Shown here piece by piece: positions 1 to 11,990 of a stretch of DNA of 11,990 bases; the stretch's first letter is position 1, and every line of letters starts with the position of its first letter. The stretch covers positions 1 through 11,990 of the IMG/VR virus record IMGVR_UViG_2744054628_000002. One strand, given 5' to 3'. The notes beneath the pieces are model-generated. The model was given only the letters and a program-made list of their open reading frames with translations, made no database searches and was not told where the DNA came from. This stretch comes from a virus (taxonomy: Duplodnaviria; Heunggongvirae; Uroviricota; Caudoviricetes). The translations under genes and the position numbers were made by a program.

Positions 1-61
1 CAGAGTGGGCGCGAGACGTTACGACAACTGGAAACTAAAACTGGGGCAACAAGATATCTGA
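1..61 (+). CDS. 3' end of an upstream gene (partial, runs off window start); product unknown
   Basis: Open frame from position 2 ending ...RVGARRYDNWKLKLGQQDI, with TGA at 59-61 overlapping the ATG at 61-63 (ATGA-type coupling). Too short to identify. Confidence 0.3.
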   Translation, partial: RVGARRYDNWKLKLGQQDI

Positions 62-357
62 TGAGCGTTCTGGCCAGAGAGCTGGTTGCCAGTGGCGATG
101 TATACAACTCTGGTTACGGGTTATTCCCGTCTGAACAGGCGCGTAAGGACTGGCAAAATGCCCGTAAAAAGCTCTCAAGGGCAAAGCTGAAGAAACCATC
201 TGCGGTTGATCCGGACCTTATCTGGTCATTACCTGATGGAGAAATACGTCGTTACGACAGGCGTCATAATATGATTTGTACTGAGTGTCGTAAAAGCGAA
301 GTTATGCAGCGCATATTGTCGTTTTATCAGGGTGATGTTCGGTATTTATTGAAGTGA
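61..357 (+). CDS. hypothetical small prophage early-region protein, 98 aa
   Basis: ATG 61 to TGA 355-357; start overlaps the upstream stop; basic, Cys-containing C-terminal half (ICTECRK). Family not recognised from sequence alone. Confidence 0.55.
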   Translation: MSVLARELVASGDVYNSGYGLFPSEQARKDWQNARKKLSRAKLKKPSAVDPDLIWSLPDGEIRRYDRRHNMICTECRKSEVMQRILSFYQGDVRYLLK

Positions 358-488
358 CGAGATTAAAGTGCATTAGTTCAGATGCAAATTGACATTTTGT
401 GGCACAGGGTAGAGCTAGCGTGGTTGTCCGCTTTGTGCCAATAGCGGACATTGCTGGCTCATGGTATGTTAGTTTAAGGAGGCAGGTT

Positions 489-1511
489 ATGCCCTGTATT
501 TCGCTGTGGTATAATAGTTGCGCAATTGATACAAGGGAGCGTTACATCGTGAAAATTGTTTTCGAGGTTAATGGAAAGAAAGTTCCACTAAAATCTTTAA
601 AATACATAAGCAAAAAAGATCAACTCGAAGTAATGAAAAACTGGTTCTTTGAAAACTTTGAAGATCCGGCAAATGCTTGTCCGTATGAAAGTAGAGAAGG
701 TGGCTATGCTTACATATATGGCGGGCCGTATGATGCGAGCGAAGAACTACAATCCATCTTCGGTCAATATGTTAAATCTGAGTATATTGAGGAATTAGTA
801 GATGAATTACAAACACAATGTTTTGACTGGTCTGGAAACTCAAATAATATAGATGATTGGTACGATGATGATATCTACGACGCTGTAACGTCTTCCGGTA
901 ATCCGTATTTAAAATTCATTGATAATATCGATAAAATAAAAAAACTTGCAAAAGATAAAACTGAACAACAGCAAAAAAACCACTTGCTTAGTTTGCTCTA
1001 CACGAATGTTATTACAGCTTTGGAAACGCTTTATGTTGAGCTATTCATTAATTCTATAGAGAAAGATGATGTCTACATAGCCAATTGTATAGAAAAAGGT
1101 AAGACTGAATTTAAAGTAAGCAAAGATATTGCTGCGTTGCCTTTCAAGGGTGAACCCATCGAGAAAATTAGGGGAGAGCTAATCAGGTCAATCAAGGAAC
1201 ACTTGATCAGTGCAAGCTGGCATAGCACTAAAAAGGTAATCGACCGCTATGAAGCTACATTCGATATAAAAGTACAAAAAGACTGTCCGATAGAAGCTAT
1301 TGAATTGGCAACCCTCAATCGAAATCACTTAGTGCATCGTGGTGGAAAGGATAAAGAAGGGAACCTCGTTGTGATTACAGACCAGGATCTTGAAACGCTG
1401 ATTGAAAATGCATCGAACCTGGCAATTATGCTCTACAACAGTTTAAATGTAGCAACGAATAAAACCACCATTTTGCAACCAGATGACAAACCGTTCATTC
1501 ATGAATTTTAA
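489..1511 (+). CDS. cassette protein A, unknown function; C-terminal helical region carries an R-x4-H motif (RNHLVH) compatible with a HEPN-type RNase fold. Start ambiguous: ATG 489, GTG 549, or the ORF-track GTG 399
   Basis: Long ORF ending TAA 1509-1511. ATG 489 is preceded by AAGGAGG (476-482) with a 6-nt spacer; in-frame GTG 549 is preceded by AAGGGAG (533-539). AT-rich and N/K/I/Y-rich, unlike flanking phage genes. RNHLVH is encoded at 1320-1337. I recognise no family beyond this motif. Confidence 0.7.
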   Translation: MPCISLWYNSCAIDTRERYIVKIVFEVNGKKVPLKSLKYISKKDQLEVMKNWFFENFEDPANACPYESREGGYAYIYGGPYDASEELQSIFGQYVKSEYIEELVDELQTQCFDWSGNSNNIDDWYDDDIYDAVTSSGNPYLKFIDNIDKIKKLAKDKTEQQQKNHLLSLLYTNVITALETLYVELFINSIEKDDVYIANCIEKGKTEFKVSKDIAALPFKGEPIEKIRGELIRSIKEHLISASWHSTKKVIDRYEATFDIKVQKDCPIEAIELATLNRNHLVHRGGKDKEGNLVVITDQDLETLIENASNLAIMLYNSLNVATNKTTILQPDDKPFIHEF

Positions 1512-1526
1512 TAGCGCAGGTCATAC

Positions 1527-2528
1527 ATGGATATTCGCACACGAAAGACAAAATTTTTAGAGTCGTTAGATTCAACTGAAGTGATACGCAAAGCAGTAAG
1601 TCTCGCTATAGATTGCATTATTGATAATCATAATAGTAATGAAGATACCCCCTTAGTTATTACCAGCTATGATGATCTCTGTAGAATCCAGGTGCTAAAT
1701 TATGTACAGGAGTTTTGCGAAGCTGCATTCCCTGATATGGATGAATATTACTTTAGTCCTAACATACTTCGCATCAACGGCAAGACTAGTGAAGAAGCTT
1801 GTATTAACTTAATTAAACTCTTAAGAAGTACAAAAGGCATGCTATTCTGGTCCGATGCCCCATCGTGGTTCGCTAGCCTCCCCGACGGATTATTCCATGT
1901 TGTTAACATTGATCAAAAAATCGTTACTCGCGGCCTTAATAAGAAAAACTCTAAGCCGACAATAATCAATAAAGATTACAGTGTAGATACACTACTATCA
2001 GAGCTATTTTTGAATGGCGCACACATGGAGCAACCCAACGTACACAACGTTTCTGAGGGAAACATGAAGTTCTATGATGAATGCCATGCTGGATTAATCA
2101 GACCAATACCCGCTCCAATAGGCGCGTCATACGATGAAGAGATCACAATTAATTCTCCAGATTGGCAAAAGCTCGCGTGTGTAGCTTTACGCCGCTATCA
2201 GTCGAAGGAATGTCATGACGGAATGCAATGGGATACAACCGATCATGGTTGGACTGATGTAATCGCGTATCCATTCGTCGAAGAAATACAATCAATGGAT
2301 AATAGTGGTTATCGACAATGTTTAGTTGGGCTGGTCACAATAAACAATTCAAATGCAAATTCTCCGTACCTATCTACCGTTTGGATACATCCATTTTATC
2401 GCAGGAGAGGGTTATTAAGTAAGTTATGGCCAAAATTACAAGAGTTATATGGAAGTAACTTCGAAATTGAGCGACCTAATGAAAATATGAAAGCATTTCT
2501 GAAAAGTGCGAAACACGCAGATTACTAA
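1527..2528 (+). CDS. cassette protein B, 333 aa; unknown N-terminal domain plus C-terminal region with a GNAT-acetyltransferase-like motif A (IHPFYRRRGLLSKLW)
   Basis: ATG 1527 lies 15 nt after the stop of protein A, same strand, implying an operon; stop TAA 2526-2528. The motif at about 2385-2429 resembles the acetyl-CoA-binding V-x-P-x-x-R-x-x-G-x-G/A segment of GNAT enzymes, with L in place of the second G. AT-rich like gene A. Confidence 0.75.
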   Translation: MDIRTRKTKFLESLDSTEVIRKAVSLAIDCIIDNHNSNEDTPLVITSYDDLCRIQVLNYVQEFCEAAFPDMDEYYFSPNILRINGKTSEEACINLIKLLRSTKGMLFWSDAPSWFASLPDGLFHVVNIDQKIVTRGLNKKNSKPTIINKDYSVDTLLSELFLNGAHMEQPNVHNVSEGNMKFYDECHAGLIRPIPAPIGASYDEEITINSPDWQKLACVALRRYQSKECHDGMQWDTTDHGWTDVIAYPFVEEIQSMDNSGYRQCLVGLVTINNSNANSPYLSTVWIHPFYRRRGLLSKLWPKLQELYGSNFEIERPNENMKAFLKSAKHADY

Positions 2529-2941
2529 TTTATGAATCAGTCTGTGGAGTTAGAGTTGGTGTGAACAAGTAGGGTAAGAGCCTCAACGTGATGCTATGCC
2601 GACCTGCTCCCTGAGAATTCACACAGAAGGCTGCTAGCAATGTCTGCAGATCGCTCAAAGCGGACTAGAAGGTTAGCTTGCGTCGGACTTGGCGTATTTA
2701 AAGAAGTGCTGGTGGTGACTGGTTGTTGTGTTCCATTTCTACAGAACAAAATCACAGAAACTATACCCAATAGTTGTATCTCATCAATGATGAGACAGCC
2801 TCATATTTATCAGGACTGGTGTACGTCCAATACAGGAGGTTGTCGTGCTGGTTCTCAAATGTGCGCTGGCTATTGCAGCTGTAATGGCAATTTATTGTCT
2901 TGCTGTTGTTCTTATGGATCGCTTTTCTGATTGATTTTATA

Positions 2942-2970
2942 TTGGCGAGGTAACGGGAGTTAAGTAGAAT
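2942..2970 (+). promoter_or_regulatory. candidate sigma70 promoter for hok mRNA (-35 TTGGCG 2942-2947, 17-nt spacer, -10 TAGAAT 2965-2970)
   Basis: Hexamers and spacing read directly. The predicted start (~2977) falls at GGTGCTTGAGGCTATCTG, which resembles the conserved 5' end of hok-family mRNAs as I recall it (GGCGCTTGAGGCTTTCTG in plasmid R1). Confidence 0.45.
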
Positions 2971-3145
2971 GGCTGCGGGTGCTTGAGGCTATCTGTCTCA
3001 GGCATGAACACCAAAGGCAGATAGAGAAAAGCCCCAGTTAACATTACGCGTCCTGCAAGACGCTTAACATTAATCTGAGGCTCAATCTATGAACGGCAAA
3101 TCTAGGTTAGCCTCTTACGTGCCGAAAGGCAAGGAGAAGCAGGCT

Positions 3146-3301
3146 ATGAAGCAGCAAAAGGCGATGTTAATCGCCCTGATCGTCATCTGTTTAACCGTCA
3201 TAGTGACGGCACTGGTAACGAGGAAAGACCTCTGCGAGGTACGAATCCGAACCGGCCAGACGGAGGTCGCTGTCTTCACAGCTTACGAACCTGAGGAGTA
3301 A
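3146..3301 (+). CDS. hok: Hok-family type I toxin (small membrane host-killing peptide), 51 aa
   Basis: Translation MKQQKAMLIALIVICLTVIVTALVTRKDLCEVRIRTGQTEVAVFTAYEPEE matches the Hok/Gef/RelF(HokD) family as I recall it: single TM helix and conserved C-terminal AVFxAYE. ATG 3146; AAGGAG at 3131-3136. The ORF-track start 3089 is an in-frame upstream ATG. Confidence 0.9.
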   Translation: MKQQKAMLIALIVICLTVIVTALVTRKDLCEVRIRTGQTEVAVFTAYEPEE

Positions 3302-3368
3302 GAGACCAGGCGGGGGAGAATCCCTCGCCACCTCTGATGTGTCAGGCATCCTCAACGCACCCGCACTT

Positions 3369-3395
3369 AACCCGCTTCGGCGGGTTTTGTTTTTT
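3369..3395 (+). terminator. intrinsic terminator at the 3' end of the hok transcript
   Basis: AACCCGC (3369-3375), TTCG loop, GCGGGTT (3380-3386), then TTGTTTTTT. Lies inside the 5' part of ORF-track ORF 3339..3746, arguing that the downstream gene starts later. Confidence 0.7.
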
Positions 3396-3467
3396 CCTAG
3401 CATTCTGGTTTACAATTCGCACGCCAGCCTGAACAACTGGCACCTGCTGCGCCAGCAGAGACAACCG

Positions 3468-3746
3468 ATGGCGCACGATACCAAATTACACAATTCTGAT
3501 GATTCTGCCGTCTTTGCCAGCAGGCACGGGCGGCGTTCCCGCACTTTCAAATCTGACTGGTTCCAGCATCCCCCATGCACTGAAGAACAGGCCGAGTGGC
3601 TAATTCAGTGCTACCGCAGACACGGATACGAGATTAAGAAAGCCCTCAGCCTCGATTATCGTCACTGGATAATCTCCGTCAGGCTTCCTTACTCCGAGCG
3701 CCCACCGCGTCCGTCCCGCACATTCCAGCAACGCATCTGGAGGTAA
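3468..3746 (+). CDS. small basic prophage protein, Rem-like by position (between hok and the DUF968 gene, as rem is in Qin); function unknown
   Basis: First ATG (3468) downstream of the hok terminator in the 3339..3746 frame; stop TAA 3744-3746 sits inside the RBS-start spacer of the next gene. Positional analogy is from memory of the K-12 Qin map. Confidence 0.5.
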   Translation: MAHDTKLHNSDDSAVFASRHGRRSRTFKSDWFQHPPCTEEQAEWLIQCYRRHGYEIKKALSLDYRHWIISVRLPYSERPPRPSRTFQQRIWR

Positions 3747-3747
3747 C

Positions 3748-4797
3748 GTGCGGGTATTACTTCGACCTGTTCTGGTACCGGAACTCGGGCTGGTGATCGT
3801 TAAGCCGGGCCGTGAATCCATGCCGGTATTCCACAATACCCGGGTACTGGTGGAGCCGGAACCGAAAAGCATGCGTAATCTGCCGTCCGGGGTTGTTCCT
3901 GCCGTTCGCCAGCCGCTAGTGGAAGACAAAACATTGCTGCCGTTTTTCAGTAACGCACGGGTGATTCGTGCTGCTGGTGGTGCTGGTGCATTGTCTGACT
4001 GGCTGTTGCGCCATATTAAATCCTGCCAGTGGCCACACGGCGATTATCATCACAGCGAAACCGTCATTCACCGTTATGGTACCGGCGCAATGGTGTTGTG
4101 CTGGCACTGCGACAACCAGCTGCGTGACCAGACATCCGAATCACTCGAGCAACTTGCTCATCAAAACCTGTCAGCATGGATGATTGACGTCATCGGTCAC
4201 GCAATAAGCGGTACGCAGGAGCGTGAATTATCTTTGGCTGAATTATCCTGGTGGGCGGTCCGCAATCAGGTGGCGGACGCGCTACCGGAAGCGGTATTAC
4301 GTCGTTCGCTGGGGTTGCGTGCAGAAAAAATCCGCTCAATGTACCGTGAAAGCGACATCGTACCGGGAGAGCAGACCGCCACCAGCATACTGAAACAGCG
4401 CACAAAAAATCTTGCGCCGCTGCCTCACGCCCACCAGCAACAGAACCCACCACAGGAAAAGACGGTGGTCAGCATTGCCGTTGATCCTGAGTCTCCGGAA
4501 TCTTTCATGAAACGACCTAAACGTCGCCGCTGGGTTAACGAGAAATACACACGCTGGGTGAAGACACAGCCGTGTGCGTGTTGTAGTAAGCCAGCCGACG
4601 ATCCCCATCACCTGATTGGTCATGGTCAGGGCGGAATGGGAACAAAATCCCACGATATTTTCACGCTACCGCTGTGTCGGGAGCATCACAACGAGCTTCA
4701 TGCGGATCCGCTGGCGTTCGAAGAAAAGCATGGTTCTCAGGTTGATTTAATTTTTCGTTTTCTTGATCACGCCTTTGCAACCGGCGTGCTTGGGTAA
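3748..4797 (+). CDS. DUF968/YdfU-like prophage protein with C-terminal Cys/His-rich HNH-like motif, 349 aa
   Basis: GTG 3748 preceded by GGAGG (3739-3743); C-terminus has CACC...HHLIGHGQGGMGTKSHD...CREHHNELH. Size, sequence and position upstream of rusA and Q match YdfU-type proteins as I recall them. Confidence 0.8.
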   Translation: MRVLLRPVLVPELGLVIVKPGRESMPVFHNTRVLVEPEPKSMRNLPSGVVPAVRQPLVEDKTLLPFFSNARVIRAAGGAGALSDWLLRHIKSCQWPHGDYHHSETVIHRYGTGAMVLCWHCDNQLRDQTSESLEQLAHQNLSAWMIDVIGHAISGTQERELSLAELSWWAVRNQVADALPEAVLRRSLGLRAEKIRSMYRESDIVPGEQTATSILKQRTKNLAPLPHAHQQQNPPQEKTVVSIAVDPESPESFMKRPKRRRWVNEKYTRWVKTQPCACCSKPADDPHHLIGHGQGGMGTKSHDIFTLPLCREHHNELHADPLAFEEKHGSQVDLIFRFLDHAFATGVLG

Positions 4798-4809
4798 AAG
4801 GGGTTACTG

Positions 4810-5184
4810 ATGCGTATAGAGTTTGTTTTGCCTTACCCGCCGACGGTGAACACCTACTGGCGACGTCGTGGCAGCACATATTTTGTATCAAAAGCCGGTG
4901 AGCGTTATCGCCGTGATGTGGCGCTTATTGTTCGCCAGCAGCGACTGAAATTAAATCTGTCCGGAAGGCTGGCGATCAGGATTATTGTGGAGCCACCGGA
5001 TAAGCGTCGTCGCGACCTGGACAATATCCTGAAAGCACCGCTGGATGCGCTGACGCATGCGGGAGTGTTAATGGACGATGAGCAGTTTGATGAAATCAAT
5101 ATCGTTCGTGGTCAGCCAGTATCTGGTGGACGTCTGGGGGTGAAGATTTACCCCATAATGCATGAAGAGCAGGTCAAAAAATGA
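4810..5184 (+). CDS. rusA: RusA-family Holliday junction resolvase (endodeoxyribonuclease), 124 aa
   Basis: Conserved RusA signatures: N-terminal PPTVNTYW and catalytic-region RRRDLDN. AAGGGG RBS 4797-4802. Stop TGA 5182-5184 overlaps the Q start. Confidence 0.93.
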   Translation: MRIEFVLPYPPTVNTYWRRRGSTYFVSKAGERYRRDVALIVRQQRLKLNLSGRLAIRIIVEPPDKRRRDLDNILKAPLDALTHAGVLMDDEQFDEINIVRGQPVSGGRLGVKIYPIMHEEQVKK

Positions 5185-6002
5185 AACTGGAAGATTTACC
5201 GAAATACTACTCCCCAAAATCCCCTTGCCTGACCGATGCATCGGCCTCAACGTCAAAAGATGCGCTGAGTATCACTGATGTGATGGCCGCGCAGGGCATG
5301 ACACAGAATCGGGCTGAGATGGGGTTTTCTGCGTTCCTGGGGAAAATGGGCATCAGTATGAATGACAGGGCGCGGGCAACAGAATTACTGGCAGATTATG
5401 CACTCAGTCGGTGCGATCGTGTGGCGGCGTTGAGAAAACTTCCGGCAGAAATAAAACCGGTAGTGATGCGCATTATGGCTTCGTACGCTTTTGAGGATTA
5501 TGCCCGCAGCGCAGCGAGTAAAAAGCAGTGCCCTTGTTGCTATGGGGAAAAATTTATTGAAAGCGTAGTTTTTACAAACAAGGTCCAGTATCCGGATGGT
5601 AAGCCGCCGGTATGGGCAAAGTGTACGAAAGGTGTGTATCCGTCTTACTGGGAAGAATGGAAAAAAGTCAGGGAGGTGGTAAAAGTTGCCTGTCCGGAGT
5701 GTGGCGGAAAGGGTGAGGTTTCCACCGCCTGTAAGGATTGCCGTGGGCGTGGTGTCGCCATTCACCGTGAAGAGTCGGTAAAACGTGGTATGCCTGTTAT
5801 CAGAGACTGCCAGCGTTGTGGTGGTCGTGGCTATGAAAGACTACCATCAACGGAGGTATTTAATGCTATATGCGAGGTGACAAACCAGATAACACGCGCG
5901 TCATGGGAAAAAACAGTTAAGAAATTCTATGATGCGCTGGTGACCCGGTTTGATATTGAAGAAGCATGGGCTGAGCGGCAGTTAAAAAAGGTAACTAGGT
6001 AA
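5181..6002 (+). CDS. Q: late-gene antitermination protein Q (lambda Q family) with an expanded Cys-rich zinc-binding region, 273 aa
   Basis: N-terminus (KYYSPKSP...DVMAAQGM) and C-terminus (SWEKTVKKFYDALV...VTR) parallel lambda Q as recalled; central CPECGGKG, CKDCRGRG and CQRCGGRG repeats. A pR'-like promoter follows immediately. Confidence 0.88.
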   Translation: MKLEDLPKYYSPKSPCLTDASASTSKDALSITDVMAAQGMTQNRAEMGFSAFLGKMGISMNDRARATELLADYALSRCDRVAALRKLPAEIKPVVMRIMASYAFEDYARSAASKKQCPCCYGEKFIESVVFTNKVQYPDGKPPVWAKCTKGVYPSYWEEWKKVREVVKVACPECGGKGEVSTACKDCRGRGVAIHREESVKRGMPVIRDCQRCGGRGYERLPSTEVFNAICEVTNQITRASWEKTVKKFYDALVTRFDIEEAWAERQLKKVTR

Positions 6003-6007
6003 CAAGG

Positions 6008-6047
6008 TTGATTTTTCCGGAATCTGTGGTAAATTCGTCATAACGAT
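6008..6047 (+). promoter_or_regulatory. pR'-like late promoter with qut-like initial transcribed region
   Basis: -35 TTGATT (6008-6013), 16-nt spacer, TGg extension (6027-6029), -10 TAAATT (6030-6035); AACGATGGG at 6042-6050 resembles the lambda pR' pause-inducing element (AACGATGGG) as I recall it. Sits directly after Q. Confidence 0.5.
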
Positions 6048-6082
6048 GGGCGTTTTATGCCTGGCGTTAGAAGAGTTTCTAC

Positions 6083-6106
6083 AACCCGCCGCTGAGCGGG
6101 TTTTTT
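6083..6106 (+). terminator. tR'-like intrinsic terminator downstream of the late promoter
   Basis: AACCCGC (6083-6089), 6-nt loop, GCGGGTT (6096-6102) running into TTTTTT (6101-6106), then ATT. Confidence 0.6.
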
Positions 6107-6145
6107 ATTGCGAAATTAATTACGGACCGTTATTATTCTGCTCCC

Positions 6146-6221
6146 GGCCCTTTAGCTCAGTGGTGAGAGCGAGCGACTCATAATCGCCAGGTCGCTGGTT
6201 CAAATCCAGCAAGGGCCACCA
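6146..6221 (+). tRNA. tRNA with CAT anticodon (Met or lysidine-type Ile2), 76 nt, CCA encoded; probably the ileX/ileZ-like tRNA that lambdoid and Stx phages carry after Q
   Basis: Hand-folded cloverleaf: acceptor GGCCCTT/AAGGGCC, D-arm GCTC-AGTGGTGA-GAGC, anticodon loop CTCATAA (CAT at 6179-6181), T-arm GCTGG-TTCAAAT-CCAGC, discriminator A, CCA 6219-6221. Close to E. coli ileX as recalled. Confidence 0.85.
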
Positions 6222-6321
6222 TCACAAACCGCCATTAGCTTATCAGGAAGAGCAGACGACACGATAACAGGGTTGTTGGTGCGGGGGCGGGTCCCCGATG
6301 GCGGTCCATTATCGGTATTCA

Positions 6322-6366
6322 GCGTTGTTAGCTCAGCCGGACAGAGCAATTGCCTTCTAAGCAGCT
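6322..6366 (+). tRNA. tRNA-Arg(TCT)-like 5' portion (acceptor 5' strand, D-arm, anticodon arm); 3' half degenerate, so probably a tRNA pseudogene or fragment
   Basis: GCGTTGT-TA-GCTCAGCCGGACAGAGC-A-ATTGC-CTTCTAA-GCAGC gives a canonical D-arm and a TCT anticodon loop, but I find no T-arm (GGTTGCACTCC in place of GGTTCGAATCC) and no 3' strand complementary to GCGTTGT. Confidence 0.35.
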
Positions 6367-6731
6367 GTGGTTGCACTCCTGTTGTTTCTGGTGGTGATGG
6401 TGGACTTCAGCAGCCGGATAATGTCGGTGCTGTCTGATGGTGTTTTGGTGGCGGGTGTGTGGTTGTTGCTTTCCCGTTGCTGAAAAAGAAAGCATCAGGC
6501 GATTAGCAGGGTATCAGTTACCCGTTGAAATTTTTAAATACCTCACAATTCCACAGCTTGATGATTGTCTGGCTGCCGGAGAATTTGTTAAAAATTACAT
6601 CGCATGGTGAATCCCCCTGTGCGGAGGGGTAATCAGCGAGTAGGTATATGGGATAATCGCGGATTCAGGTGCTGGTACTGAATTCACCGGGAGGCACCCG
6701 GCACCATGCAATGGCACATAGCGCCACTCTC

Positions 6732-6759
6732 CAGCCCCTCTCCGGAGGGGCTGTTTATA
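6732..6759 (+). terminator. GC-rich hairpin followed by T-rich tract; candidate intrinsic terminator
   Basis: 9-bp stem CAGCCCCTC / GAGGGGCTG with TCCG loop (6732-6753), then TTTATATTGATTTTG. U-tract is interrupted, so strength uncertain. Confidence 0.4.
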
Positions 6760-6787
6760 TTGATTTTGTCAGATGTGAGTAAACTCC

Positions 6788-7123
6788 TTATGGACTTTGT
6801 TGTTTTAGTCCATAAGGACATATTTGCAGAATGCAACGGTTATTAAAGCATTCATTCAATACGTTATCTGTATTTGTAGGGCATTCCTGGCTGTTTTTGA
6901 TTAAATTCCAGAATGTTTTATTGAATGGTACTACGTTGTAAATGGTTACAGGTAGCACTTTGTTATTGAGCATGATGCCTGTGTGAGTCAGTGTAAATAT
7001 ACTTTCAGGAGGTAAGAAAGCATCCGATTGATACCAGATTATTAATTTTATTTTACTCCATATGACTGAAAAAGATATTCCGCATGATGGCTGGATAACT
7101 GTATCAATCACAATCCACTTCAT
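6788..7123 (-). CDS. hypothetical Cys-containing protein in AT-rich moron, 111 aa, no recognisable family
   Basis: ATG at 7123 (- strand) preceded by AGGA with ~6-nt spacer; stop at 6788-6790. Opposite strand to all flanking phage genes, AT-rich, and sits in the Q-to-S cargo slot. No signal peptide evident. Confidence 0.6.
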
Positions 7124-7382
7124 TTACTTTCCTTGTTTATGCCTTGCTGGTGATGTTCTGAAAAGTATAAATGATATTTTTGAATTAAACCATAGAGCAG
7201 AATTATTTTTCTGATGTTGTTTATTGTTTATTTAAATACAGGGTGGTTTATATCTCGTCTTGTAGTTTATCCATGCATATCTGCTTGATAATCAGGTTTT
7301 TATTTAAGGTATGGTTTTGTGTTTTTTCTGTATTACATGTCAGGTATTTTAAAGAATTATTTTTCAGATGGTGGAAAGAACC

Positions 7383-7571
7383 ATGGCATTTAAACACTAT
7401 GATGTTGTCAGGGCGGCGCCGCCGTCAGATCTTGCGGAAAAGCTGACACATAAACTGAAAGAGGGCTGGCAGCCGTTTGGTAGTCCGGTGGCCATAACCC
7501 CTTATACCCTGATGCAGGCGATTGCAGCAGAAGGTGATGTGGTGGTCAGCGGTGCAACTGAGCCGGAGTGA
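7383..7571 (+). CDS. small conserved lambdoid-prophage protein found upstream of lysis genes (possibly DUF1737-like); function unknown
   Basis: ORF 7368..7571; internal ATG 7383 has a better purine-rich RBS (GGTGGAAAGA). N-terminus MAFKHYDVVRAAPPSDLAEKL resembles small proteins I recall at this position; family name is tentative. Confidence 0.5.
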   Translation: MAFKHYDVVRAAPPSDLAEKLTHKLKEGWQPFGSPVAITPYTLMQAIAAEGDVVVSGATEPE

Positions 7572-7814
7572 TACTACGTCATCGTACTGGCCCGGCATTC
7601 CAGGCCATAAAAGACAGTCTGGCAGTGGGACTAAATGCACTGACGCTGACGGATATTACCAAAAATGCAACGTATGGCGTTGAGATAGAAAGTCTGGTGC
7701 TGGAGATAAATGCACCGGCATCATCATAAAAAGTGAGCCAGTCAAATGGAAGGTATCGTTAAACTCACCGGTAGTGTCAGTGGGTCGTCTGAGACGCTTG
7801 CATGAGTTATCAGA

Positions 7815-7843
7815 GCCATCAGTAGTTAACTGGTGGCTTTTTT
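7815..7843 (+). terminator. intrinsic terminator immediately upstream of the holin gene
   Basis: 8-bp stem GCCATCAG / CTGGTGGC (one G-T wobble), 7-nt loop, then TTTTTT (7838-7843). Lies inside the GTG-initiated extension of ORF 7774..8094, supporting the ATG 7879 start. Confidence 0.55.
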
Positions 7844-7878
7844 ATTGTTGTCAGCTTCCGGATAACGGGAGACGGGGT

Positions 7879-8094
7879 ATGGACCAGATGGAAAAAATCA
7901 CAACAGGTGTGTCATACACCACGTCAGCGGTGGGAACGGGCTACTGGTTCCTGCAGTTGCTGGACAGGGTTTCCCCGTCTCAGTGGGCGGCAATAGGCGT
8001 GCTGGGGAGTCTGCTGTTTGGGCTGCTGACATATCTGACTAACCTGTATTTCAAAATCAGAGAGGACCGTCGTAAGGCTGCACGGGGAGAGTAA
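7879..8094 (+). CDS. S: class II holin / pinholin (phage 21 S-like), 71 aa, with dual-start motif Met1...Met4
   Basis: [15 protein letters not shown]...[40 protein letters not shown]: two TM segments plus charged tail, similar to S21 as recalled. GGGAGA RBS 7867-7872, 6-nt spacer. Confidence 0.85.
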
Positions 8095-8098
8095 TTCA

Positions 8099-8449
8099 AT
8101 GACTCAAAACTATGAACTGATTGTGAAAGGGATCCGCAATTTTGAGAATAAAGTTACGGTAACTTTAGCGTTACGGGACAAAAAACGCTTTGACGGTGAA
8201 ATTTTTGACCTGGACATCTCGCTGGACCGTGTTGAAGGTGCCGCGCTGGAGTTTTATGAGGCAGCAGCCAGAATGAGCATCAGACAGGTCTTCCTGGATG
8301 TTGCTGCCGGGTTATGTGAAGGGGATGAGCAGTCGCCGGAAAAGCGCCCCGTAATTTTAGAGGCGCAGAATGTATGGATAACCTACAAAGGAAAGCTACC
8401 GGGAAGAATTACTGGTTCTCTGAAGACTCCTCCGGAATCACAACCTTAA
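8099..8449 (+). CDS. hypothetical protein between holin and endolysin (YdfR-like by position and size; possibly DUF1327), 116 aa
   Basis: ATG 8099 follows holin stop TAA 8092-8094 by 4 nt. Positional match to ydfR between essQ and rrrQ in Qin, from memory. No catalytic motif recognised. Confidence 0.65.
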   Translation: MTQNYELIVKGIRNFENKVTVTLALRDKKRFDGEIFDLDISLDRVEGAALEFYEAAARMSIRQVFLDVAAGLCEGDEQSPEKRPVILEAQNVWITYKGKLPGRITGSLKTPPESQP

Positions 8450-8512
8450 GTCACTGACCGGAACAGATAAACCTGTCCGTGGGCAGAAACCGATAAATCC
8501 TGATAAATATCC

Positions 8513-9046
8513 ATGAACGCAAAAATCAGATACGGCCTGTCGGCTGCCGTTCTGGCACTGATTGCCGTCGGTGCGCCCGCGCCTGATATTCTCGACCAGT
8601 TTCTGGATGAAAAAGAAGGTAACCACACAACGGCATACCGCGATGGGTCCGGCATCTGGACCATCTGTCGGGGTGCCACGATGGTGGATGGAAAACCCGT
8701 TTTTCCCGGTATGAAACTGTCGAAGGAAAAATGCGACCAGGTCAACGCCATTGAGCGTGATAAGGCGCTGGCATGGGTGGAGCGCAATATTAAAGTACTA
8801 CTGACCGAACCACAAAAAGCGGGTATAGCGTCATTCTGTCCCTATAACATTGGCCCCGGTAAGTGTTTCCCGTCGACGTTTTATAAGCGGCTGAATGCCG
8901 GTGATCGTAAGGGCGCATGCGAGGCGATTCGCTGGTGGATAAAAGATGGTGGGCGCGATTGCCGCATACGTTCAAATAACTGCTATGGACAGGTTATTCG
9001 TCGTGACCAGGAAAGCGCATTAGCCTGTTGGGGGATAGAGCAGTGA
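8513..9046 (+). CDS. R: SAR endolysin (T4-lysozyme-like muramidase, phage 21 R / RrrQ-like), 177 aa
   Basis: Gly/Ala-rich hydrophobic N-terminal signal-anchor-release segment ([16 protein letters not shown]), then E-x8-D-x5-T catalytic pattern ([16 protein letters not shown]) and C-terminal ALACWG, as in R21-type lysozymes. Confidence 0.9.
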
Positions 9047-9504
9047 GCAGAGTCGCCGCGATTATTTATGCTTTGGTTATCTGCATCATCGTCTGCCTGT
9101 CGTGGGCGGTCAATCATTACCGTGATAACGCCATCGCCTACAAAGAACAGCGTGATAAAAAAGTCAGTGAGCTGAAGCAGGCGATCGCCACTATCGCTGA
9201 CATGCAGCAGCGTCAGCGTGATGTTGCTGCGCTCGATGCAAAATACACGAGGGAGTTAGCTGATGCGAAAGCTGAAAATGATGCTCTGCGTGATGATGTT
9301 GCCGCTGGTCGTCGTCGGTTGCACATCAAAGCAGTCTGTCAGTCAGTGCGTGAAGCCACCACCGCCTCCGGCGTGGATAATGCAGCCACCCCCCGACTGG
9401 CAGACACCGCTGAACGGGATTATTTCACCCTCAGAGAGAGGCTGATCACTATGCAAAAACAACTGGAAGGAACCCAGAAGTATATTAATGAGCAGTGCAG
9501 ATAG
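9043..9504 (+). CDS. Rz: i-spanin Rz, 153 aa
   Basis: GTG 9043 overlaps the R stop (TGA 9044-9046) and follows GGGGGA. Product [31 protein letters not shown]... is near-identical to lambda Rz as recalled. The ORF-track start 9028 is TTG inside R. Confidence 0.9.
9263..9445 (+). CDS. Rz1: o-spanin Rz1 lipoprotein, 60 aa, embedded in the +1 frame of Rz
   Basis: [24 protein letters not shown]...[29 protein letters not shown]: lipobox VVGC, proline-rich; matches lambda Rz1 as recalled. GGGAG RBS 9251-9255. Confidence 0.9.
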
Positions 9505-9535
9505 AGCTGCCCATATCGATGGGCAACTCATGCAA

Positions 9536-9829
9536 TTATTGTGAGCAATACACACGCGCTTCCAGTGGAGTATAAATGCCTAAAGTAATAAAACCGAGAA
9601 ATCCATTTACGAATGTTTGCTGGGTTTCTGTTTTAACAACATTTTCTGCGCCGCCACAAATTTTGGCTGCATCAACAGTTTTCTCCTGTCCAATTCCCGA
9701 AACGAAGAAATGATGGGTGATGGTTTCCTTTGGTGTTACTGCTGTCGGTTTGTTTCCAACAGTAAACGTCTGTTGAGCACATCCTGTAATAAGCATTGCC
9801 AGAGCGGCAGAAAACAACATTTTTTTCAT
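9536..9829 (-). CDS. bor: Bor lipoprotein (serum-resistance / Iss family), 97 aa
   Basis: From ATG at 9829 (- strand): MKKMLFSAALAMLITGCAQQTFTV...LEARVYCSQ with lipobox ITGC; near-identical to lambda Bor as recalled. The ORF-track start at 9877 is an upstream extension. Convergent with Rz. Confidence 0.9.
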   Translation of the reverse strand: MKKMLFSAALAMLITGCAQQTFTVGNKPTAVTPKETITHHFFVSGIGQEKTVDAAKICGGAENVVKTETQQTFVNGFLGFITLGIYTPLEARVYCSQ

Positions 9830-10212
9830 CTTATTATCCTGCATTGTTAAAAACGGCAGAATCCTATGTGACAACAATTAAACGATAGTTAAATGGATTG
9901 ATGAAAATTAAAACTATATAGGTGGATGCTCAGCCTATCGGAGGTAGTCAGGATTTGAATGTCAGTCTGTTGTCGGCATTCTGGCAATGCAATTTGGATA
10001 AAGCGGGGATTAAAAAGATAGAGGCGAGCCGGTCAGGTAGAAATGAATCAGGCTCAAAGTGAAGCGGAAAAGGTCTGTGGCACAAGCTGATGCAGCCATA
10101 ATTACAGCCTGATGATTTGTGGAATGAAACATGTTGAACCTCCTTAATTGATGTTATTCGAGTGATGAAGGCATTCTGTCCTTCTATAGTGTCCAGTAAA
10201 TCAAACAGGAAA

Positions 10213-10234
10213 CTTGTCCAACGTGTTGGACAAG
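10213..10234. repeat. perfect 10-bp inverted repeat with 2-bp spacer (CTTGTCCAAC GT GTTGGACAAG), candidate operator
   Basis: Arms are exact reverse complements; additional TGTCC-containing half-site-like copies lie just upstream (~10177-10196). About 90 bp upstream of the G start. Confidence 0.5.
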
Positions 10235-10325
10235 CCTCTCCATTAGTGAGTTGTATTGATCACAACTCTACAAAGAATTCATTACTGGGTAGATGAAAAT
10301 AGTTTCACTATGAATGGAGGAGGCT

Positions 10326-10748
10326 ATGTCGGTGGCTTCTTCATTGGAGTACCGTCAGTTAATGAGGATAGATGTGATGACTAAAAATATCCGTAATCTG
10401 GCACTGGCAGCGATGTCGGGGTTTCGCCATAAAACTGTTGATGTGCCTGAATGGGAAGGGGCAACGGTTGTATTACGGGAACCTTCTGCAGAAGCCTGGT
10501 TGCGCTGGCAGGAGATCGTTAAAGCAAAAGATGATGAGACACCGTTATCCGTTGCGGAGCTCGCCCGCCGAAATCTGGAAGCGGATGTTGAACTGTTCAT
10601 CGATGTTCTGTGTGATACCGGACTGCAACCTGTATTTTCAGTGGATGATCGTGAACAGGTGATTGCCGTGTATGGCCCGGTGCATGCGCGGCTTCTTCGG
10701 CAGTCTCTGGAACTGATCAGTGATGCCGGCGAGGTTAAAAAAAAGTAG
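10326..10748 (+). CDS. G: tail assembly chaperone G, 140 aa
   Basis: ATG 10326 with GGAGG RBS (10316-10320); ORF ends EVKKK-TAG with the slippery heptamer A_AAA_AAG (10739-10745) just before the stop. The ORF-track start 10314 is an upstream in-frame ATG without a good RBS. Confidence 0.75.
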   Translation: MSVASSLEYRQLMRIDVMTKNIRNLALAAMSGFRHKTVDVPEWEGATVVLREPSAEAWLRWQEIVKAKDDETPLSVAELARRNLEADVELFIDVLCDTGLQPVFSVDDREQVIAVYGPVHARLLRQSLELISDAGEVKKK

Positions 10749-11050
10749 CGCTTCCGGGGATGCGTTTTCTGATGATGCTGGCGCTCAGGATGGGGCGCAC
10801 ATTGTCAGAGTTACGCCGGGAAATGTCCGCATCAGAAATCATGATGTGGGCAGAGTTTGACAGGTTCAGCCCGCTGGGGGACGAACGGGCTGATATCCGG
10901 GCTGCCCAGATTGTTTCAGCTGTTTACGGTGCGCAGGGGGTCAAAGTGCCACTGAATGATGCGCTTCTTCAGTGGGAGAAGGAGCAGACAGAAGGCGTAT
11001 CAGATCCATTTGCTGGACTGGAAAACGCGCTTTTAATAGTGTCTCAGTGA
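10739..11050 (+). CDS. T: T segment of the G-T tail assembly chaperone fusion, reached by -1 programmed ribosomal frameshift at A_AAA_AAG
   Basis: The -1 frame is open from the slip site through ...VALPGMRFLMMLALRMG... (ORF 10760..11050) to TGA 11048-11050. The fusion product would span 10326..11050. Confidence 0.7.
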   Translation, partial: KKVALPGMRFLMMLALRMGRTLSELRREMSASEIMMWAEFDRFSPLGDERADIRAAQIVSAVYGAQGVKVPLNDALLQWEKEQTEGVSDPFAGLENALLIVSQ

Positions 11051-11058
11051 GTCAACAT

Positions 11059-11990
<932 letters not shown>

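Follow-up and report, generated by a model that had tools for sequence, protein, structure and literature searches.

A defective lambdoid prophage very probably carries the programmed −1 ribosomal frameshift site of an HK97-type tail assembly chaperone pair

Introduction

Programmed −1 frameshifting in the tail genes of long-tailed phages is known from phage lambda, where the slippery sequence is G_GGA_AAG. Another case, the E. coli dnaX gene, reaches an efficiency of about 50% by means of an upstream Shine-Dalgarno-like element and a downstream stem-loop. The lambda G/G-T system has reportedly been treated by Levin, Hendrix and Casjens in 1993 and by Xu, Hendrix and Duda in 2004, 2013 and 2014. 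G-T frameshifting is widely conserved in long-tailed dsDNA phages; the binding partners of G and T are the tape measure protein and the major tail protein, respectively, and low-level frameshifting sets the G:GT ratio needed for tail assembly, which is about 30:1 molar in lambda (PMC5009743). E. coli has one tRNA-Lys (mnm5s2UUU), which pairs better with AAA than with AAG, and A_AAA_AAG is both the most shift-prone heptamer tested in this bacterium and the site used in dnaX (PMC5009743). Sites of the dnaX and IS911 type consist of this identical heptamer and follow the same slippage logic, based on the same tRNA-Lys with its mnm5s2U34 (PMC5009743).

For the locus described here the better comparator is phage HK97, whose gp13/gp14 pair (NC_002167) belongs to the same two protein families. 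The RefSeq record of HK97 gp14 carries the remark "translated due to a -1 frameshift", and joined G-T coding sequences are annotated in phage HK446 and in Burkholderia phage KS9. The HK97 shift site, CGG GAA AAG, lies 15 nt before the G stop within a 52-nt overlap of the two genes, and only its A_AAG is in canonical phase.

We examined a related site in an 11,990-nt stretch of viral DNA, hereafter the window (positions 1 to 11,990 of IMG/VR record IMGVR_UViG_2744054628_000002). We are highly confident that positions 10739-10745 are the programmed −1 ribosomal frameshift site of an HK97-type tail assembly chaperone pair (G/GT), inherited unchanged; as part of this explanation, its source would be an intact lambdoid prophage with HK97-like head genes. 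The identification is based on the geometry of the site, the families of both products, and the conserved −1 arrangement and fusion junction; no conserved 3′ structure was found. From these observations we infer that slippage occurs at 10739-10745, as well as its efficiency and its mechanism at the level of tRNA. The feature is a recoding site of textbook type, already known, and it opens no new biological question.

A slippery heptamer boxed in by stop codons

The G gene ends in the zero-frame codons GAG GTT AAA AAA AAG TAG, and a slippery heptamer makes up its final two sense codons. The elements that define the site are as follows.

10736-10738, + strand: −1-frame stop TAA, directly 5′ of the heptamer
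10737-10744, + strand: A8 homopolymer enclosing the slippery site, followed by G at 10745
10739-10745, + strand: slippery heptamer A_AAA_AAG, with P-site AAA at 10740-10742 and A-site AAG at 10743-10745
10746-10748, + strand: zero-frame stop TAG (end of G), directly 3′ of the heptamer

The heptamer is in the phase X_XXY_YYZ relative to the ORF that ends at 10748. Because the zero and −1 frames overlap by only 10 nt, bounded on either side by a stop (TAA at 10736-10738 and TAG at 10746-10748), a productive −1 shift is possible only on the heptamer itself. From 10739 the −1 frame is open to a TGA at 11048-11050, which amounts to 101 codons past the Lys-Lys of the slip site. The sequence-only reading from which this work started had placed an A_AAA_AAG, formed by eight A residues and a G, at 10739-10745 just before TAG 10746-10748, and this proved exact to the base. 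Its further claim that the −1 frame stays open through the downstream ORF holds equally: a stop near the slip site, which it had named as the finding that would speak against it, does not occur for 101 codons.

As a bare string, AAAAAAG is unremarkable, with six occurrences in the window against 3.07 expected. Specificity was assessed by a screen of the 132 X_XXY_YYZ strings that the window contains, whatever their strand or phase. A string had to be preceded by a long zero-frame ORF, to have a stop no more than 20 codons away, and to leave 60 or more codons open in the −1 frame. A single string combined all of these properties, namely 10739-10745, with an upstream ORF of 142 codons. As a clean natural A_AAA_AAG boxed by stops in both frames, it could serve as a minimal frameshift reporter. 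A second in-phase AAAAAAG is found at 5984-5990, near the end of the Q antiterminator gene (5181-6002), with five codons to go to the stop; a −1 shift at this point would meet only four open codons, so that no extended product is possible.

Products of the G and T frames and their counterparts in HK97 and lambda

The genes on either side of the shift point, and a hairpin that follows them, are listed below.

10377-10748, + strand: G-like tail assembly chaperone gene, 123 aa (PF06222, phrog_344), ending AAA AAA AAG TAG
10745-11050, + strand: T segment (VALPGMRFLMMLALRMGRTL...), translated in the −1 frame once slippage has taken place, with stop TGA at 11048-11050 (PF06223)
11059-11082, + strand: strong hairpin of intrinsic-terminator type, AACCGCTTCGGCGGTT plus T8, past the T stop and ahead of the tape measure start

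The G start is taken as ATG 10377. The ORF has an earlier ATG, its first, at 10314, but a deletion junction at about 10350 separates it from the gene; with ATG 10377, start and length are the same as in the annotated coding sequences of two intact relatives, L001 and L002. Over its entire length (residues 1-123 of 123) the G protein matches Phage_TAC_1 (PF06222; E 7.7e-57, 191 bits against a cutoff of 25), and it also matches the tail assembly chaperone family phrog_344. The −1 product matches Phage_tail_T (PF06223; E 4.3e-19, 69.1 bits against a cutoff of 25.9), so that the T-domain similarity predicted for the downstream ORF, the absence of which was to count against a frameshift site, is present. 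Joined at 10745, G and the T segment yield a conceptual G-T fusion of 224 aa. The PHROG profile phrog_14766, which was built from fused proteins, has 224 positions; G aligns with 1-121 and the −1 segment with 123-220, and the match is contiguous over the junction.

G and the T frame lie directly upstream of the tape measure gene, which begins at 11097, and this succession of a G-like chaperone, a −1-frame T and a tape measure corresponds to the Xu/Hendrix/Duda arrangement that the initial reading had recognized. The terminator-like hairpin at 11059-11082 is presumably read through under Q antitermination; annotated terminators occur in the same module of relatives HK446 and HK97.

The resemblance to HK97 extends through the module. 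PF06222 is matched by HK97 gp13 with 203 bits, and PF06223 by the HK97 T part with 73 bits and by lambda T with 54 bits. Across the whole fusion, identity to the HK97-like phages HK446, HK544 and HK106 is about 62% at the amino acid level. The genes of HK97 follow one another in the same way (major tail, G, T in −1, tape measure), with the moron gp15 between T and the tape measure gene, and HK97 shares the fusion junction, K|V..PG..FLMxLALRMGRTL, which there falls inside the G/T overlap. The shift sites themselves differ: compared with the site of HK97, the window has the full canonical A_AAA_AAG, abutting the stop, and an overlap of just 10 nt.

Likeness to lambda G-T is borne out in part. 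Lambda G/G-T has the same arrangement and presumably the same role, lambda T likewise belongs to PF06223, and the lambda −1 shift also ends on tRNA-Lys at A_AAG. The likeness does not extend to the G family, since lambda gpG is assigned to PF06894 (Phage_TAC_2) whereas the window G matches PF06222 only. The alignment with lambda G-T that had been proposed as a check on the −1 fusion gave no significant BLASTP match between the window and lambda G and T (E 4.3 for lambda G and 0.22 for lambda T), and the relatedness of T to its lambda counterpart is visible at the profile level only. Judged by its profile and BLASTP matches, the window G is an analogue, or at best a remote homologue, of lambda gpG, outside the family of the latter.

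In the closest relatives, and by PGAP, G and T are annotated as separate genes. Taken at face value, such annotation would mean that no recoding takes place, that T is an independent 96-aa protein starting at ATG 10760, and that the heptamer is a coincidental run of three lysine codons; RefSeq and several phage records do list a separate "phage tail assembly protein T" from the equivalent ATG. The comparison with relatives argues strongly against this. ATG 10760 is not conserved, its place being taken by Ile, Val, Thr or Leu, whereas the −1-frame peptide V-x-x-P-G between the slip point and the position of ATG 10760 is conserved. In HK97-type relatives the conserved junction peptide is encoded within the overlap, before the G stop is reached. 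Its position there and the variability of ATG 10760 both speak for frameshifting at a homologous point as the way in which T is reached. Moreover, the GGGG that abuts ATG 10760 is a poor ribosome-binding site, the fused PHROG profile runs through the junction without a break, and the lysine codon at the shift site is AAG in 39 of the 39 intact relatives that have a lysine there. AAG is the minor lysine codon in E. coli. We therefore consider independent translation of T to be extremely improbable, and retain frameshifting at 10739-10745 as the route by which it is reached.

Conservation of the junction among relatives

A tblastn search with the conceptual 224-aa fusion returned 226 phage records, and all full-length matches, from 96% down to 36% identity, were split into two pieces in two frames. 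The ends of G were then analysed in 43 species-level genomic loci and 80 IMG/VR loci, collected with an alignment of five enterobacterial sequences. Forty-one of the 43 species-level loci are intact, and the T homologue is in the −1 frame in every one of them (41/41) and in the +1 frame in none. Their shift sites fall into the following types.

A_AAA_AAG, stop directly after: 13 of 41 intact loci
A_AAA_AAG, 24-30 nt before the stop: 2 of 41
G_GGA_AAG: 5 of 41
G_GGA_AAC: 2 of 41
HK97-type (C)GG GAA AAG: 6 of 41
GTG GAA AAG CCG TAA: 2 of 41
GCA/GTA/GAA AAG TAA: 11 of 41

A full canonical heptamer is thus present in 22 of the 41 loci, an in-phase A_AAG in 39 and A_AAC in the other two. The stop stands at distance 0 from the shift site in 24 of the 41. 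Every lineage keeps the fusion junction K|V(x)xP(G)xxFLMxLALRxGRTL, translating from the slip point. On comparative grounds, the shared in-phase A_AAG points to slippage of tRNA-Lys from AAG to AAA.

Among close relatives the heptamer and TAG are essentially invariant, and the exceptions, four loci in number, concern the length of the homopolymer. The IMG/VR loci L098 and L113 have A7 in place of A8 at about 1860-1867 (equivalent to 10737-10744 of the window), so that G would grow to 160 aa in the +1 frame and a −1 shift could no longer lead into T; A7 is either an error in the sequencing of the homopolymer or a genuine inactivating mutation. L121 and L122 have A_AAA_AAA variants, with A9.

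This variation in length bears on a different route to the same product, in which the G-T fusion would arise mainly by transcriptional slippage, the RNA polymerase adding one A on the A8 run in a fraction of the mRNAs, which are then translated in the standard way. The run is eight A residues long, and transcriptional slippage in bacteria has been described on runs of nine A or T (PMC5009743); homopolymer length does vary in relatives, from the A7 of L098 and L113 to the A9 of L121 and L122; and the fusion protein made after addition of an A would be no different (V K K K V A L P), so that the product cannot tell the two routes apart. However, the feature conserved across the family is the in-phase A_AAG and not the length of the A run. 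The same junction occurs with A6 (L003), with A7 (Kosakonia, Rahnella), with A3 in G_GGA_AAG, or with GCA AAG, and the runs of 3-7 in these relatives are too short for polymerase slippage; even the run of eight in the window falls below the nine-nucleotide runs cited for efficient slippage. Because relatives with the same junction have A runs of only 3-7, we regard transcriptional slippage as improbable as the main route. It is possible that the A8 run is a minor hot spot for transcriptional slippage or for mutation, alongside the ribosomal frameshifting that we favor.

Some relatives depart from the canonical heptamer. In 11 of the 41 intact species-level relatives there is no heptamer, and GCA, GTA or GAA AAG stands directly before TAA. 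Heptamer-less G ends are seen in L006, L015, L026-L028, L032, L034, L036, L037, L043, L046 and L049; the −1 overlap in such relatives can be as short as 10 nt, which suggests that a single tRNA may slip on A_AAG beside the stop. In HK97-type relatives the GGGAAAG string is phased CGG GAA AAG (G_GAA_AAG), as at 1333-1341 of the HK97 locus (L137) and also in L004, L011-L013, L016, L023, L025 and L123-L133. This phasing is one base out with respect to lambda G_GGA_AAG, leaving only the A_AAG tetramer canonical, and a P-site tRNA-Glu at such a site would need to re-pair from GAA to GGA.

Proposed slippage on the heptamer and its expected efficiency

By analogy with the described systems, most ribosomes would make G (123 aa) and halt at TAG 10746, whereas a minority would slip back by one base on A_AAA_AAG. 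The slip would be driven by the single E. coli tRNA-Lys, which is poor on AAG and would re-pair better with AAA. Translation would then proceed in the −1 frame through GTA GCG CTT... to give the 224-aa G-T fusion, whose G and T parts would, respectively, bind the tape measure protein and recruit the major tail protein. Two routes can be envisaged. Slippage probably occurs in tandem, with AAA and AAG in the P and A sites; it may also occur after a further step, when AAG has moved to the P site and the A site contains TAG, which is decoded slowly and awaits release factor; the protein that results, ...EVKKK|VALPG..., is identical by either route. A contribution from P-site slippage at the adjacent TAG is plausible, because both a stop at distance 0 and a bare A_AAG plus stop recur in relatives.

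Elements that could stimulate slippage were sought on both sides of the heptamer. A single-sequence fold of 10746-10835 was no better than shuffled sequences (z = −1.47), and RNAalifold, applied to 15 diverse relatives, returned as the only structure an invariant 5-bp hairpin 36 nt downstream, with zero compensatory pairs; this hairpin falls inside the stretch that codes for the conserved LALRMGR. An Rfam scan gave no match at the frameshift site. Nor was a stimulated cassette of the dnaX type found, in which a conserved Shine-Dalgarno-like element precedes the heptamer by 10-14 nt and a stem-loop follows it at 5-8 nt. One upstream candidate, the Shine-Dalgarno-like GAGGT at 10731-10735, was rejected: it is only 3 nt from the site and is not conserved in L003 and L114.

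The dnaX stimulators thus have no conserved equivalent in the window, and for that reason a much lower efficiency than that of dnaX would be expected, despite the identical heptamer. Since neither a stimulatory structure nor a conserved upstream element was found, a modest, lambda-like level of frameshifting appears likely; by analogy with lambda G-T, the efficiency is probably a few per cent.

The main consequence is for annotation. The locus should be taken to encode G and a 224-aa G-T fusion, and the latter is missing from the annotation, in the window and likewise in many E. coli genomes that carry intact, 100%-identical prophages.

The site in a deleted prophage

The window represents the late region of a lambdoid prophage. 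It begins with DUF977, a sok RNA, DUF968, RusA and the antiterminator Q; Q is followed by a tRNA, the STnc100 sRNA, holin, DUF1327, lysozyme and Rz genes, by bor/iss on the other strand, and then by G, T and the tape measure gene. The RNA genes, and the remnants that delimit the G-T module, are the following.

2977-3151: sok antitoxin RNA (Rfam, 110 bits)
6146-6221: tRNA with CAT anticodon, called Met (ARAGORN), between Q and the holin gene
6572-6762: sRNA STnc100 (Rfam, 132 bits), between Q and the holin gene
10350-10362, + strand: last 13 nt of the major tail (Ig-domain) gene, at the upstream deletion junction (about 10350-10352)
11097-11834, + strand: 5′ part of the tape measure gene, of about 246 codons when the GTG start of L001 is adopted (PF20155 TMP_3, E 2e-51)
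11835-11990, + strand: fragment of the tip attachment protein J, second Ig-like domain (PF24489 Ig_J_second, E 4e-18)

In intact relatives, iss is followed by genes for an HNH endonuclease, terminase, portal, capsid, connectors and an Ig-domain major tail protein, the last of which lies directly upstream of G in the intact prophage L001. All of these have been deleted from the window, and the upstream deletion junction (10350-10352) occurs in none of 5,426 complete E. coli genomes. At the other end, homology to L001 stops at 11834, where a deletion has cut the tape measure gene and fused it in frame (11834/11835) to the J fragment, which continues past the end of the window. E. coli AF44 (NZ_OZ547155.1) has the same tape measure/J junction, annotated as a pseudogene, and also lacks the segment corresponding to 10012-11136 of the window, including G and T. 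Between the two junctions, 10350-11834 is 100% identical to intact prophages.

These findings modify one claim of the sequence-only reading, that the site is retained although the prophage looks defective. The prophage is indeed defective and the site is intact, but retention is uninformative at 100% identity to intact prophages, and reflects recent deletion and not selection. Because the prophage lacks the partners of G-T, the site is not under selection here. The G-T product is very likely useless in the window, since the major tail gene has been deleted and the tape measure gene is cut and fused to J.

It is likely, in our judgment, that the site is now a silent relic, competent in itself but either never translated in the defective prophage or yielding a product that does nothing. 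The loss of the HNH, terminase, head and major tail genes, the truncated tape measure joined to J, the disappearance of G and T altogether from the sister genome AF44, and an identity to intact prophages that leaves no room for independent evolution all fit this description. On the other side, late transcription could still reach G and T, since they share the + strand with Q and the lysis cassette. Silence in any case concerns biological relevance and not the identity of the element, and is compatible with a programmed frameshift site at 10739-10745. We think it very improbable that the G/G-T module has been kept because it is still used, be it by supplying chaperones in trans to co-resident or superinfecting phages with HK97-type tails, by acting as a recombination donor for them, or alternatively by working with the tape-measure::J chimera; we place at the same low level a smaller variant, in which the conserved recoding core would be the A_AAG tetramer beside the stop, instead of the heptamer, together with a component of transcriptional slippage on A8.

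Near the start of the window, two ORFs at 399-1511 and 1527-2528 (370 and 333 aa) have only below-cutoff Pfam matches, to HEPN_RES_NTD1 (E 2e-4) and to a GNAT acetyltransferase (E 9e-4), respectively. They could represent accessory or defence cargo borne by the prophage.
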